From Candidatus Gottesmanbacteria bacterium (GTDB taxonomy: Bacteria; Patescibacteriota; Microgenomatia; 2-02-FULL-39-11): a stretch of 64,000 bases of DNA. Of this stretch, positions 34,688-38,977 are shown in pieces (position 1 is the first letter of the stretch; each line of letters starts with the position of its first letter). The stretch covers positions 4,177 to 68,176 of the forward strand of contig JACPZE010000002.1 in assembly GCA_016195685.1 (NCBI GenBank), read 5' to 3'. A program made the translations under genes and the position numbers. The notes beneath the pieces are model-generated. The model had not been told where the DNA came from. It saw only the letters and a list, made by a program, of their open reading frames with translations, and made no database searches.

Positions 34688-34759
34688 GCGCGCGTAGCTC
34701 AGCGGTAGAGCGTTTCGTTGACATCGAAAAGGCCCTTGGTTCAAATCCATGCGCGCGCA
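34688..34759 (+). tRNA. tRNA-Val (anticodon GAC). CCA is not encoded.
   Basis: Acceptor GCGCGCG/CGCGCGC. D-arm GCTCAGCGGTAGAGC. Anticodon stem TTTCG/CGAAA with loop TTGACAT. T-loop GGTTCAAATCC. Confidence 0.9.
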
Positions 34760-34765
34760 CACTAT

Positions 34766-34793
34766 TTGACAGTGTATCAAAGTATGTTATCAT
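34766..34793 (+). promoter_or_regulatory. Sigma70-like promoter TTGACA-N13-TGtTATCAT directly after tRNA-Val. It would drive a leader of about 140 nt before thrS.
   Basis: Seen: TTGACA at 34766-34771 and TGtTATCAT at 34785-34793. Confidence 0.5.
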
Positions 34794-34809
34794 TAAATAA
34801 ATATATTTC

Positions 34810-34942
34810 AACGCTTGCATGAGACTTCACCAACCTCAAAGCTGAATGCATCTATTGCAAAATATAGAAAATTAAGACCACCAAAGTTGGATGGGACCTT
34901 CGCCAGCTGGCGAATCCAACAGAAGGTGGATTTTTTGTACAT
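34810..34942 (+). promoter_or_regulatory. Structured thrS leader, a T-box-like candidate. It has a short stem-loop presenting a Thr ACC codon, a bulged hairpin with a UGGGACC bulge, an outer CCACC/GGUGG helix that sequesters a GGUGG SD-like element, and a U6 run ending 6 nt before the thrS ATG.
   Basis: Read from sequence at 34878-34936: CCACC AAAG TTGGAT GGGACCTT CGCC AGCT GGCG A ATCCAA CAGAA GGTGG ATTTTTT. GGATGGGACC matches the T-box core GGGTGGTACC at 8 of 10 positions. Confidence 0.35.
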
Positions 34943-36700
34943 ATGAGTAAAAATGATAGTGAATATTTAAATAATCTACGCCATTCCTGTGCGCATCTTC
35001 TAGCTAAAGCTGTAAAAGACTTATGGCCGGGTACGCATAACGCCATAGGACCAGCTATCGAAAATGGCTTTTACCAAGATTTTGATTTTGGAGATAGAAA
35101 AATTTCAGATGCGGATTTACCCGAAATTGAGGAAAAAATGAGGATAATACTTAAAACTTGGGAACATTTTGACTATAAAGAAGTTACCCTTAAAGATGCA
35201 AAGAAACTTTTCTCCGACAACCCTTACAAGCTGGAATTAGCAGAAGAATTTGCGAAAGGAGGAAAAAAACTATTGACGAATAACCCTGGAAACTTTCTTG
35301 ACCTTTGCAAAATGACCCATGTGGAAAACCCCAAAAAAGAAATGCAACATTTTAAACTACTCAAACTTGCTGGAGCGTATTGGCGGGGAAATGAAAAAAA
35401 CAAAATGCTTACTCGAATATATGGAACCTGTTTTCCCGCAAAAGAAGAGTTAGATAAATATCTTTGGCAACAGGAAGAAGCAAAAAAAAGAGACCATAAA
35501 AAATTGGGGAAAGAATTAAGTTTGTTTATTTTCTCAAATAGTGTAGGTCCAGGACTTCCTCTTTTTATGCCCAAAGGTATGATAATTCGACGAGTTATCG
35601 AAAACTACTTAGTTAAACTGAAGGAATCTTATGGTCATCATTTCGTTTGGACTCCTCATATTGCTCGCAGTGAGCTTTATAAGCAAAGTAAACATTGGCA
35701 AAAATACGAAGCAATGATGCCTCCTCTTAAACTTGAGGATGAAGAATACACCCTCAAACCGATGAATTGTCCACATCATTTTCAAATTTACTTGGCAAAT
35801 CCGCGCAGTTATCGGGATTTACCCCTGCGGCTTGCAGAAAATACAACTGTGTACCGTTATGAAAAAAGTGGCGTCATAAATGGGCTATTTAGAGTCCGCT
35901 CTGTTACACAAGATGACAGTCATTGGTTTATACCTCATAATCTAATTCCATCAGAAATAGATCATGCAATCAAATTGACAAAACAAATTTATGAAGATTT
36001 TGGCCTTAGCAAGTTCCACGCTAGAATTTCAATAAGGGATAAAAAAAATCCTGATAAATATTTAGGCGAGCTAAAAGTTTGGGAAAGTGCCGAAAAGGAA
36101 TTAGCAAAAGCAGTATCAGAGAAAAATATCCCTTACTCGTTAGGTGAAGGAGAGGCAGCTTTTTATGGGCCCAAAATAGATTTCATGGTTGAAGATAGTT
36201 TAGGAAGAGAATGGCAACTTACTACAATTCAACTAGATTTTAATCAGCCTGAAAATTTTGATTTAACTTACACAGATGAAAAAGGTGAGAAAAAAAGACC
36301 GGCCGTACTTCATATAGCAATTCTAGGTTCAATTGAAAGATTCTTAGGCATTTTGATTGAACATTACGGAGGTGCGTTTCCTACTTGGTTAGCACCAGTT
36401 CAAGCTATAGTCTTACCAATTTCTGATAAACACAAAGATTATGCTCATAGAATTTATAACCAGCTAACTGAAGTAAATCTAAGAATAGAAGAGGATAACC
36501 GAAATGAAACTCTGGGTTCAAAGATTAGAACCGCAGAGCTTCAAAAGATTCCATATGTTATCATTGTTGGCGATAAAGAAATTAAAGAAAGTACTATTTC
36601 AACCCGTAGGAGACATGAGAAGCAGGATTTAGGACAGATGCGAATTAAAAATTTCATTTTTATGATTCAAAAAGCTATTGATAACAAGACAAATAATTGA
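34943..36700 (+). CDS. thrS: Threonine--tRNA ligase (lacks the N-terminal TGS domain; starts at the N2 editing-type domain)
   Basis: RHSCAHLLAKAV editing-domain motif, class II core and C-terminal anticodon-binding domain. 585 aa. Confidence 0.9.
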   Translation: MSKNDSEYLNNLRHSCAHLLAKAVKDLWPGTHNAIGPAIENGFYQDFDFGDRKISDADLPEIEEKMRIILKTWEHFDYKEVTLKDAKKLFSDNPYKLELAEEFAKGGKKLLTNNPGNFLDLCKMTHVENPKKEMQHFKLLKLAGAYWRGNEKNKMLTRIYGTCFPAKEELDKYLWQQEEAKKRDHKKLGKELSLFIFSNSVGPGLPLFMPKGMIIRRVIENYLVKLKESYGHHFVWTPHIARSELYKQSKHWQKYEAMMPPLKLEDEEYTLKPMNCPHHFQIYLANPRSYRDLPLRLAENTTVYRYEKSGVINGLFRVRSVTQDDSHWFIPHNLIPSEIDHAIKLTKQIYEDFGLSKFHARISIRDKKNPDKYLGELKVWESAEKELAKAVSEKNIPYSLGEGEAAFYGPKIDFMVEDSLGREWQLTTIQLDFNQPENFDLTYTDEKGEKKRPAVLHIAILGSIERFLGILIEHYGGAFPTWLAPVQAIVLPISDKHKDYAHRIYNQLTEVNLRIEEDNRNETLGSKIRTAELQKIPYVIIVGDKEIKESTISTRRRHEKQDLGQMRIKNFIFMIQKAIDNKTNN

Positions 36701-37806: not shown

Positions 37807-37865
37807 TAAATTACCAATATAGCTGTATGAAACTCCATTTAGTCAATTGGTTTTATTTTTATTTT

Positions 37866-37895
37866 AACCCGCAAGCGGGGAGTGGTTTTGTTGTG
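37866..37895 (+). terminator. First of two tandem terminator-like hairpins after rplT (CCCGC-AAG-GCGGG followed by a U-rich tract)
   Basis: Seen: aacccgcaagcgggg agtggttttgttgtg. Confidence 0.4.
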
Positions 37896-37924
37896 TAACT
37901 AAGAAATCAAACAAAATAAATACC

Positions 37925-37950
37925 AAATCCCGCAAAAGCGGGATTTTTTT
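37925..37950 (+). terminator. Strong rho-independent terminator (9-bp stem AAATCCCGC/GCGGGATTT, loop AAAA, T7)
   Basis: Seen: aaatcccgc aaaa gcgggattt tttt. A GGAG SD for the next gene follows. Confidence 0.8.
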
Positions 37951-37963
37951 ATTGGAGTAATTT

Positions 37964-38977
37964 ATGATAATTATACTTAAATCAAATTTGACTCTGGCAA
38001 AAGAAGAAGAAATAAGAAAGTTTTTGGCCAAAAAGCAAGTCGAGGTTATTCCCGTCAAAAGATCGGATAAAACATTACTGGTGGTCGTTGGCCGTTTTGC
38101 CGAACTTACCAAGCGGGAAGTGGCTTTACATGAATATGTAGACACTATTGTTGAGATTGACAGACCATATAAATTAGCAAGCAAATCTTTTAAAAATATA
38201 AACTCGGAGATAAAAATTAACGGAACCACAATTATAGGGGGAAAAGAGATAGTTATCATGGCCGGTCCATGTTCTGTAGAAACTAAAGATCAAATCAGAG
38301 AGATTGCTAAGGAAGTAAAAGGTGCCGGATGCCAGATACTACGAGGTGGCGCTTTTAAGCCCAGAACCGGTCCGTATGATTTTCAAGGTTTGGGAAAAAT
38401 TGGTCTTCACTTTTTAAAAGGTGCAGCAAAAGAAAATAAACTCGCTGTTATCACAGAGGTATTAGACGTTCGGGAAGTTGAGCTCATCGAGAAATATACC
38501 GATATTTTTCAAGTGGGTACAAGAAATATGCAAAATTATCCTCTTCTTTCAGAACTAGGTAAAAGCCATAAGCCTGTTTTACTTAAGCGTGGTATGTCGG
38601 CAACGTACAAAGAATTATTATTGGCTGCCGAATATATACTTTTGGGTGGAAATGAAAAGGTTATACTTTGTGAAAGAGGGATAAGAACTCATGTCCCGGA
38701 AACCCGGTTTACTTTGGATTTAAATGCAGTACCTTATCTTAAACATGAGACTCATCTTCCGGTCGTAGTTGATCCCAGTCACGGTACCGGCAGAGCAAAT
38801 CTAGTACGTGCCATGAGCAGGGCAGCTATTGCCGCAGGCGCAGATGGACTTCTCATAGAGGCACATCTGGACCCGCGTAAATCTATTTCCGATGCCGATC
38901 AGGCTATTTCGACTCAAGAATTAAAAAAATTGGTGAAGGAGGTTAAAAGGATTGCTGTTGCCGTCGACCGAAAATAA
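37964..38977 (+). CDS. 3-deoxy-7-phosphoheptulonate (DAHP) synthase, type I-beta, with an N-terminal ACT/ferredoxin-like regulatory domain
   Basis: The catalytic core IMAGPCSVE...ILRGGAFKPRT...DPSH is DAHPS/KDO8PS-family. An N-terminal regulatory extension of about 80 aa precedes it. Confidence 0.85.
   Translation: MIIILKSNLTLAKEEEIRKFLAKKQVEVIPVKRSDKTLLVVVGRFAELTKREVALHEYVDTIVEIDRPYKLASKSFKNINSEIKINGTTIIGGKEIVIMAGPCSVETKDQIREIAKEVKGAGCQILRGGAFKPRTGPYDFQGLGKIGLHFLKGAAKENKLAVITEVLDVREVELIEKYTDIFQVGTRNMQNYPLLSELGKSHKPVLLKRGMSATYKELLLAAEYILLGGNEKVILCERGIRTHVPETRFTLDLNAVPYLKHETHLPVVVDPSHGTGRANLVRAMSRAAIAAGADGLLIEAHLDPRKSISDADQAISTQELKKLVKEVKRIAVAVDRK

Follow-up and report, generated by a model that had tools for sequence, protein, structure and literature searches.

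What does the leader upstream of thrS, the gene for threonyl-tRNA synthetase (ThrRS), sense in a member of the Gottesmanbacteria, and at which level does it act on the gene? The leader in question spans ~130 nt (34807-34937) of the thrS upstream region on a contig (JACPZE010000002.1) from the Candidate Phyla Radiation (CPR, or Patescibacteria), of which a stretch of 64,000 nt, here called the window, was analyzed. A preliminary description, made from the letters of the window, had recognized in it a T-box-like RNA with an ultrashort Stem I and had leaned towards a translational mode of action. Our comparison with the thrS leaders of related genomes leads us to favor, with some confidence though well short of certainty, a different version of this idea: the leader would be a miniature, T-box-derived RNA that senses tRNA-Thr and thereby sets transcription termination ahead of thrS, with the control of readthrough probably extending to the downstream genes infC-rpmI-rplT. 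Judging by its sequence and predicted fold, the leader is fairly described as having a new architecture that is T-box-derived or T-box-like and that appears to combine a codon loop, an IIA/B-like pseudoknot and an acceptor-binding core with no other canonical part.

The leader recurs upstream of thrS in related Patescibacteria

Relatives of the locus were gathered by a genome scan, a metagenome scan, searches with ThrRS homologs and contig look-ups, the genome scan identifying metagenome-assembled genomes (MAGs) of Gottesmanbacteria and other Patescibacteria as the nearest genomic relatives of the window. The same leader lies 5' of thrS in eight other Patescibacteria contigs, whose ThrRS proteins are 48-88% identical to that of the window, namely L022 (88%), L019 (82%), L020 (75%), L021 (72%), L026-29 (66%), L034 (60%, and 84% to the ThrRS of L026), and the pair L014 and L036, which share ~96% identity (48%, the value obtained with L014). 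The set thus comprises nine leaders with a mean column identity of 71%; eight are full-length and that of L014 is cut at its 5' end. All eight full-length leaders are preceded by a promoter equivalent to the extended -10 promoter of the window (TTGACA at 34766-34771, N13, and TGtTATCAT ending at 34793; score 11/12), which ends 10-15 nt ahead of the aligned leader start, with the first helix, P1, beginning 1-3 nt inside that start.

No such leader was found at the more distant thrS loci L002-L004, L011-L013, L030, L031 and L035, and a scan for ThrRS in viral contigs found nothing. The motif was also not seen in the 75 nt surviving upstream of thrS in L001, a Gottesmanbacteria MAG (ThrRS 64% identical) whose contig is cut there; this incomplete leader (1-75) holds different alternative hairpins, CGACAAGC / GCUUGUCG / CGACAAGC, and no UGGNACC. 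In L002 and L011 (2910-2935) and L003 (2950-2975; ~52% identity), a simple hairpin, GUCCCCACC-UUUC-GGUGGGGC, follows an A-run upstream of thrS and is probably an ordinary terminator.

Covarying helices define a compact architecture

The 156-nt leader of the window folds better than its shuffles (z = -2.7). For the comparative analysis, the leaders were segmented by hand, and the alignments A2 and A3 were fixed by N-padding, such that MAFFT left them unchanged. Across the seven helices of alignment A3, 249 cells were scored, of which 97.2% hold standard pairs, and compensatory change is seen at 32 of the 37 base pairs. Values this high were not obtained in any of 500 shuffles, and pairing falls to 29-44% of the cells once the 3' partners are displaced by 1-3 columns. 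Because this manual alignment was fitted to the structure, its counts lean towards that structure, and we set against them the independent support from single-sequence folds and from RNAalifold. The minimum free energy (MFE) fold of the window places CCACC/GGUGG around GUUGGA/UCCAAC, a 7-nt bulge and UUCGCC/GGCGAA, and single-sequence MFE folds recover the outer helix (O), A1, the bulge and A2 in the window, L019, L021 and L036, and the pseudoknot stem S1 in four leaders. P1 and P2, along with compensatory changes in them, also emerge when RNAalifold is run on the untouched automatic MAFFT output; this automatic alignment misaligns the 3' half and speaks neither for nor against O, A1 and A2. 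The fold energy, the recurrence in eight contigs and the compensatory changes in every helix together bear out the claim of the preliminary description that a structured, T-box-like leader exists here. The sequence elements that it had listed, viz., the promoter, the GAG/CUC hairpin (CACCAAC), the bulged hairpin, CCACC/GGUGG and the U6 tract, are likewise all present where it had placed them.

From 5' to 3', the conserved fold (Table 1) starts with a specifier hairpin, which is indeed ultrashort, as had been proposed, and whose basal helix P1 takes the forms UCAGC/GCUGA, UCCAC/GUGGA, CUAGC/GCUAG, UUGAC/GUCAA, UUCCC/GGGAA and UUUGC/GCAAA. The GAG/CUC hairpin of the earlier model, exposing ACC and A, is present, but the outer UGCAU/AUGCA stem drawn beneath it is not supported: 65% of its cells are paired, with no compensation, the real basal helix is UCAAC/GCUGA, and the AUGCA arm (34846-34850) holds the UGCA strand of S1 (34847-34850). 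A candidate J1:L3 pseudoknot (UUGCA:UGCAA) was also rejected, with 64% of its cells paired and no compensation. The specifier hairpin is followed by a pseudoknot of 21-22 nt, which shows full covariation in six of eight leaders and is missing from the short forms L026 and L034, and then by the purine-rich flank. The outer helix is 100% paired in 8/8 leaders, four of its five pairs being compensated (ACCGU/ACGGU, CCACU/AGUGG, CCGCU/GGCGG). Within it lies A1/A2, where A2 has a different sequence in every lineage with its pairing maintained.

Table 1. Features of the thrS leader and its immediate surroundings in the window (positions are those of the window)
Feature	Position	Strand	Remarks
tRNA-Val(GAC) gene	34688..34760	+	ARAGORN; Rfam tRNA 69.7 bits; neighbor, outside the element
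Sigma-70-type promoter	34766..34793	+	TTGACA, 16-nt spacer, TATCAT, TG upstream of -10
Specifier hairpin	34808..34845	+	P1 and P2 covary
P1	34808-34812 with 34841-34845	+	UCAAC/GCUGA in the window, one A·C mismatch; covaries in relatives
Internal loop of specifier hairpin	34813-34820 (5' side, 8 nt); 34838-34840 (3' side, AAA)	+	
P2	34821-34824 with 34834-34837	+	covaries
Terminal loop of specifier hairpin, 9 nt	34825-34833	+	
ACC (Thr codon) and A	34829..34832	+	loop positions 5-8; ACC 34829-34831, A 34832
Compact H-type pseudoknot	34847..34868	+	both stems 100% paired, all pairs compensated
Pseudoknot stem S1	34847-34850 with 34856-34859	+	UGCA with UGCA
Pseudoknot stem S2	34851-34855 with 34864-34868	+	UCUAU with AUAGA
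Purine-rich flank AAAUUAAGA	34869..34877	+	consensus RAUURAG; kept in 9/9 leaders
Outer helix O, 5' strand CCACC	34878..34882	+	pairs with 34925-34929
A1, 5' strand GUUGGA	34886..34891	+	pairs with 34915-34920; 5/6 pairs covary
7-nt bulge UGGGACC	34892..34898	+	UGGN at 5' edge, straight after A1
A2, UUCGCC-AGCU-GGCGAA	34899..34914	+	34899-34904 with 34909-34914
A1, 3' strand UCCAAC	34915..34920	+	
Outer helix O, 3' strand, and U-tract	34925..34936	+	GGUGG 34925-34929, A, U6 34931-34936
thrS, threonine-tRNA ligase, 585 aa	34943..36700	+	followed by infC, rpmI, rplT

Two invariant single-stranded motifs are complementary to tRNA

Against this background of changing helices, two unpaired motifs do not change. 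ACC followed by A, i.e., a Thr codon and a purine ahead of thrS, is invariant in all eight leaders that contain the hairpin, L036 included, within a 9-nt loop of consensus NYUMACCAA (CUUUACCAC in L036). UGGNACC is invariant in all nine, always as a 5'-side bulge that abuts A1 and lies between the two covarying helices A1 and A2, N being G in the window and A in the other eight. All nine leaders possess the covarying A1, invariant bulge and covarying A2 of a T-box antiterminator. Conservation of the ACC loop and of the UGGN bulge, and covariation in related thrS leaders, were the checks that the preliminary description had named for its own proposal, and the relatives agree with it on both. The placement of UGGN at the 5' edge, abutting A1, holds for all known T-boxes, where it pairs with the NCCA end of the tRNA and stacks on A1 (PMC7583486). 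A cognate codon with a purine after it is the second contact that defines T-boxes, whose Thr specifiers favor C-ending codons (PMC7778990); ACC fits this preference. No second convincing A1-UGGNACC-A2 module was found in the 64-kb window, including upstream of pheST, or in ~200 kb of related loci.

The leader ends like a terminator

The conserved 3' end of the leader speaks to the level of control. In all nine leaders, a G+C-rich outer helix of 5-6 bp is followed by U4-7, the form of an intrinsic terminator; a simple terminator scanner misses that of the window, where the enclosed 'loop' is a 42-nt structured module. The composite hairpin is predicted at -22.0 kcal/mol and the inner module at -13.8 kcal/mol in the window (-13 to -30 and -6 to -16 kcal/mol, respectively, across the leaders), and these computed values resemble the TBDB means for terminators (-19.5) and antiterminators (-7.4). 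The U-run ends 6 to ~70 nt before the start codon among the leaders, and 6 nt before it in the window (ATG at 34943).

The preliminary description had instead stressed that CCACC/GGUGG sequesters a Shine-Dalgarno (SD)-like element, AAGGUGGA, and had compared the leader to the ileS T-boxes of Actinobacteria. Sherwood and colleagues reportedly described the latter in 2015 as translational T-boxes with an ultrashort Stem I. The outer helix of the window does hold AAGGUGGA, but its sequestration is not conserved: the distance of the SD-like motif from the start codon ranges over 13-70 nt (13-15 nt in the window, rising to ~30 nt in L022 and to ~70 nt in L019), L019, L020 and L026 carry degenerate versions of it, and in L036 a separate AAGGAG stands 3' of the U-tract, clear of the helix and unsequestered. 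Because of this variable distance and the AAGGAG of L036, SD sequestration is not the conserved feature of these leaders. The conserved part is the G+C-rich helix with its U-run, and the ileS-like translational mechanism is not upheld.

A search for elements that could compete with this helix returned no upstream partner for the terminator 5' strand among the leaders and no general conserved competitor of either terminator strand. For the terminator 3' strand, pairing is possible with UCACC of the specifier loop in five leaders, or with the bulge through the U-tract (GGAACC:GGUUUU), complementarities to neither of which a function can be assigned. The latter pairing (34892-34897 versus 34925-34936; columns 31-39 with 73-82 of alignment A5) joins the bulge to the end of the terminator stem and the U-tract in six of seven leaders and is picked by RNAalifold on the automatic alignment; both partners are invariant and hence uninformative. 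As for the former, the terminator 5' strand always holds a Thr codon (34878-34885 versus 34827-34833), be it as CCACC, ACCGU, CCACU, or CCGCU preceded by A (ACC), and the strand plus its 3' flank is similar to the specifier loop (CCACCAA versus UCACCAA), so that the GGU-containing 3' strand can pair with either site.

A proposed mechanism and the evidence that weighs against it

We propose that the 9-nt loop presents ACC and A to the anticodon of tRNA-Thr(GGU), and that ~60 nt downstream the UGGN of the bulge would base-pair with that tRNA at its free 3'-terminal NCCA, the IIA/B-like pseudoknot and the purine-rich linker serving to position the two contact sites. When no uncharged tRNA is bound, the 5-bp G+C-rich helix would close around A1/A2 before the U-tract and transcription would terminate; when uncharged tRNA-Thr is docked at both sites, closure of the outer helix would be disfavored and readthrough would follow. 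The binding of the tRNA, the direction of the response and the block that docking imposes on the outer helix are what we infer here. How docking might act on the helix can be imagined in more than one way. Our preferred guess is that the purines of RAUURAG and the J3 AAA are recruited into the tRNA-bound fold like the purine string of a canonical Stem III, which would interrupt the stacking of A1 on the short outer helix; their positions correspond to RRRxG...AA. A tether could also be at work, as only 11-15 unpaired nt connect the specifier domain to the outer helix, which may be too short for the tRNA to bind at two points unless the 5' strand is single-stranded.

Several observations have to be held against this reading, beginning with the sample. 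There are only eight to nine sequences, several of them closely related, and the structure counts lean as explained above. Moreover, nine sequences from one gene family are a set from which covariation of codon with gene, the proof of a T-box, cannot be shown. The preliminary description had regarded the lack of a covariance-model hit as counting against a T-box, and RF00230 indeed has no match at E<=10 in the window (601-nt and 171-nt searches) or in L014, L019-L022 and L026. Several canonical parts are absent: there is no long Stem I, distal region or elbow platform, the codon lying in a terminal 9-nt loop on stems of 3-4 bp and 5 bp; there is no Stem II; and, an insertion in L021 excepted, there is no Stem III hairpin, the terminator 5' strand occupying its site. 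Transcriptional T-boxes generally require the long Stem I elbow platform, and an antiterminator that lacks Stem III is on its own a poor binder of tRNA (PMC7583486). The base of A2 is not G•U (columns 130/159 of alignment A3 are UA in four leaders, CG in two and GC in two), a loss through which the discrimination between charged and uncharged tRNA may differ from that of canonical T-boxes, and A2 itself is down to ~2 bp in L026 and L034. The specifier can be read in more than one frame, ACC lying one position 5' of the default frame of TBDB, which reads CCA (Pro). At the other contact, N = A/G would call for a tRNA-Thr with U73 (an A-U pair, or a G·U wobble with the G of the window); neither the window nor any of the 37 loci retrieved contains a tRNA-Thr gene. 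Finally, the terminator helix encloses A1/A2 and does not share their 3' strands. This enclosure means that canonical strand exchange cannot apply, and a ligand might even stabilize the terminator; a canonical terminator built from the A1 3' strand can be drawn in just three lineages (the window, L021 and L026), at a weak -6 kcal/mol.

Relation to known T-boxes

One member of the set links these leaders to the Rfam family more directly. L036 matches RF00230 with 18.0 bits (E=0.096) in a 601-nt search, a score that falls to 10.2 bits in a narrower search and lies far from the gathering score of 93, yet is the best non-tRNA match on the correct strand. Its core AAAUUAGGGUGGAACCG is near the canonical AAUUAGGGUGGUACCGCG, and AAAUUAGGGUGGAACCG...CCCU is aligned to A1, bulge and A2 of the model with high posterior probability (module on model positions 185-219; the T-box core match spans 17 nt). 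The same alignment assigns the pseudoknot region to Stem IIA and the F-box, collapses the 17-nt Stem III onto the 4-5-nt 5' strand of the outer helix and deletes the 93-nt Stem I. By these scores, the leader lies outside the Rfam T-box family and cannot be filed as a member.

The class I transcriptional T-boxes of Firmicutes (B. subtilis thrS, tyrS, glyQS; RF00230) likewise lead aminoacyl-tRNA synthetase genes behind a promoter of their own. They share with the CPR leaders the upstream cognate codon with its purine, the A1/7-nt UGGNACC bulge/A2 module, in which UGGN directly adjoins A1, A-rich flanks that are conserved, and an intrinsic terminator with a U-tract as the expression platform; the pseudoknot that most CPR leaders place between their sensor hairpin and 3' module resembles their IIA/B element. 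They are, however, longer (~180-300 nt versus 105-150 nt for the CPR leaders) and place the codon in an internal Specifier Loop with an S-turn, whereas the CPR leaders present it in a terminal 9-nt loop and lack the K-turn, the elbow platform, Stem II, the Stem III hairpin and the G•U at A2. Further, the class I terminator is built from the 3' strands of A1/A2, whereas that of the CPR leaders encloses these helices, and RF00230 misses the CPR form. The canonical purine string sits 5' of Stem III, which is the position of the RAUURAG flank (PMC7583486); both RAUURAG and AAA are A-rich but do not match RRRxG. At the Stem III site of canonical T-boxes, L021 has an extra hairpin, UUCUGUAC-GAAA-GUACAAGAA (1411-1435), between the terminator 5' strand and A1.

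The class II ileS T-boxes of Actinobacteria (M. tuberculosis, N. farcinica; PMC7583486) resemble the CPR leaders in a truncated Stem I without the elbow platform and in the same UGGNACC core; their IIA/B pseudoknot has a look-alike in most CPR leaders, and like them the CPR leaders appear reliant on elements between Stem I and the discriminator. In contrast to the CPR leaders, which have a terminator platform, no conserved SD sequestration and neither Stem II nor Stem III, they have retained a Stem II that bears an S-turn as well as Stem III and the G•U sensor, and they switch by SD sequestration. The glyQS-type T-boxes provide a natural precedent for the loss of whole domains (Stem II and IIA/B) with transcriptional function; they keep the long Stem I platform and Stem III, which the CPR leaders have lost, whereas the CPR leaders keep the IIA/B-like pseudoknot.

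More tentatively, and with rather less conviction than we attach to the sensor itself, we raise the possibility that these leaders constitute a third architectural class of T-boxes, i.e., a transcriptional CPR sensor of 105-150 nt without the Stem I platform, Stems II and III or the G•U sieve, whose terminator encloses the acceptor-binding module. If so, switching would proceed by the tRNA-dependent prevention of a short closing helix, through the geometry of the tether or of the purine string, and not by exchange of A1 strands, which would constitute a second way of coupling tRNA binding to a terminator; the codon loop, small pseudoknot and UGGNACC module would then represent the real minimum for tRNA sensing. 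Such leaders would also carry T-box regulation into the Patescibacteria, which would fit the ancestry usually proposed for T-boxes, in the common ancestor of Terrabacteria-like phyla. TBDB was built with RF00230 and a class II model confined to Actinobacteria, its supplement mentions none of these phyla, and none of the papers covered by a literature search joins T-boxes with CPR, Patescibacteria or Microgenomates. T-box databases built on RF00230, such as TBDB, would miss leaders of this kind.

Other explanations of the leader

The missing parts and the nested topology lend themselves to another explanation, in which the leader is an attenuator that binds a ligand other than tRNA, such as ThrRS or ribosomal protein L20, its T-box-like motifs being convergent or vestigial. 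The operon thrS-infC-rpmI-rplT contains members that are protein-autoregulated in model bacteria: ThrRS autoregulates thrS in E. coli, and L20 controls the infC operon in B. subtilis. The absence of Stem III and the G•U pair, the parts that sense aminoacylation, would be expected, and the nesting of A1/A2 within the terminator would suit a ligand that stabilizes it, which is the logic of protein feedback repression. Yet we consider this unlikely. A ThrRS operator, which the preliminary description had offered as an alternative, finds no anticodon-like loop to rest on, since neither a GGU, UGU nor CGU loop of the E. coli type is conserved and the loops of A2 and the pseudoknot vary; the invariant strands are complementary to tRNA (ACC in codon sense, UGG versus CCA) and not mimics of it. 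Neither L20_leader nor the other leader families of Rfam give a match, and a 7-nt UGGNACC bulge would be improbable as a chance occurrence in the right context beside a cognate codon. A translational sensor of tRNA-Thr, in which the outer helix hides AAGGUGGA and tRNA binding frees it, is less probable still. The 3' strand of the outer helix, (A/U)AGGUGG in the window, L021 and L022, is complementary to the 3' end of 16S rRNA, and the very short specifier hairpin is reminiscent of translational T-boxes, which tolerate the loss of the elbow platform (PMC7583486). Besides the shifting and degenerate SD-like motif and the free AAGGAG of L036 described above, this explanation has to contend with the U-tract kept after the helix in 9/9 leaders, which a sequestrator does not need.

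We give equally little credence to a self-contained fold without any ligand in trans, in which the CCA of the loop kisses the UGG of the bulge and the whole serves as a constitutive partial terminator or as a stabilizing or processing element of the 5' untranslated region. The loop ACCA and the bulge UGG are complementary over 3 bp and both invariant, because of which covariation cannot separate an intramolecular partner from a tRNA. However, the contact is limited to these 3 bp, N (A or G) is unable to pair with the A of ACCA, and three observations are left unexplained: the Thr codon before thrS, the swap of relatives to leader peptides with Thr codons (see below) and the 17-nt match to the T-box core in L036. 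Lastly, the leader might be the plain intrinsic terminator of the tRNA-Val transcript that happens to lie before thrS, as the preliminary description had also considered. In the window, L020, L021 and L036, thrS is preceded by a tRNA-Val gene of the same orientation, but this gene lies on the opposite strand in L019, L022, L026 and L034, all of which keep the full leader; a promoter lies between tRNA and leader in every case, and a terminator requires no specifier hairpin, pseudoknot or invariant bulge. Gene orientation thus refutes this explanation, to which we assign next to no probability.

Thr-rich leader peptides ahead of thrS in relatives

The T-box-derived sensor that we favor gains from what takes its place in other members of the clade. 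Upstream of thrS in L023-25 (1372-1470; ThrRS 69% identical), the T-box-like leader is replaced by an open reading frame (ORF) for a leader peptide, MKLVFITTTTNSA with its stop, and the same is true of L033 from Roizmanbacteria (1037-1140; ThrRS 66% identical), with the peptide MSLLNFVIVTTTTCPR and stop. Both peptides contain four consecutive Thr codons, ACC ACA ACU ACC (TTTT), and both are followed by alternative 1:2, 2:3 and 3:4 hairpins and a strong terminator with U7-8. We know of no leader-peptide attenuation of thrS in model bacteria. Attenuation of thrS in response to Thr-tRNA hence recurs in the clade by way of two sensors, which supports both the proposed ligand, i.e., the charging of tRNA-Thr, and the proposed level of control, i.e., termination.

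Leader-peptide attenuators such as those of E. coli thr and pheST are comparable to the window leader in that they sense charged tRNA and control a terminator; in contrast to them, the window leader has no conserved ORF, and its sensor is an RNA structure. The AUG at 34818, in J1/P2, opens a short frame (MRLHQPQS, then stop) that has no in-frame Thr codon, ACC being out of frame, and it is without counterpart in L021, L026, L034 and L036.

Elsewhere in the window, a candidate aromatic leader-peptide attenuator lies upstream of the DAHP synthase gene (37964-38977), at 37827-37963 on the + strand. Its leader ORF, MKLHLVNWFYFYFNPQAGSGFVV with a stop, contains the run W-F-Y-F-Y-F, and downstream of it come CCCGCAAGCGGGG and the terminator CCCGCAAAAGCGGGAUUUUUUU; a homologous peptide, MIEKSQNWYFAFYFTPACGEGFLW with a stop, occurs at 4346 of L021, where Rfam Phe_leader scores a sub-threshold 33 bits. 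Because the same locus has this candidate aromatic attenuator and relatives place Thr peptides before thrS, these reduced genomes appear to use transcription attenuation as a means of keeping tRNA charging in balance. To our knowledge, gene regulation in CPR bacteria is almost unknown; if our reading of the thrS leader is correct, it would be among the first cis-regulatory RNAs described for them.

Gene neighborhood

The gap of 182 nt between tRNA-Val and thrS in the window accommodates the promoter-like site and the leader, and the gene order thrS-infC-rpmI-rplT is also found in L021, L022 and L023. The ThrRS of the window, whose sequence is identical to that of a Gottesmanbacteria protein at NCBI, starts at the editing (tRNA_SAD) domain and is without the N-terminal TGS domain of typical bacterial ThrRS, a state shared by all its Patescibacteria homologs. 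The tRNA-Val(GAC) gene is almost always the immediate upstream neighbor of the thrS leader region (window, L003, L012, L021, L022, L026, L033, L034 and L036), and its orientation flips between Patescibacteria lineages.

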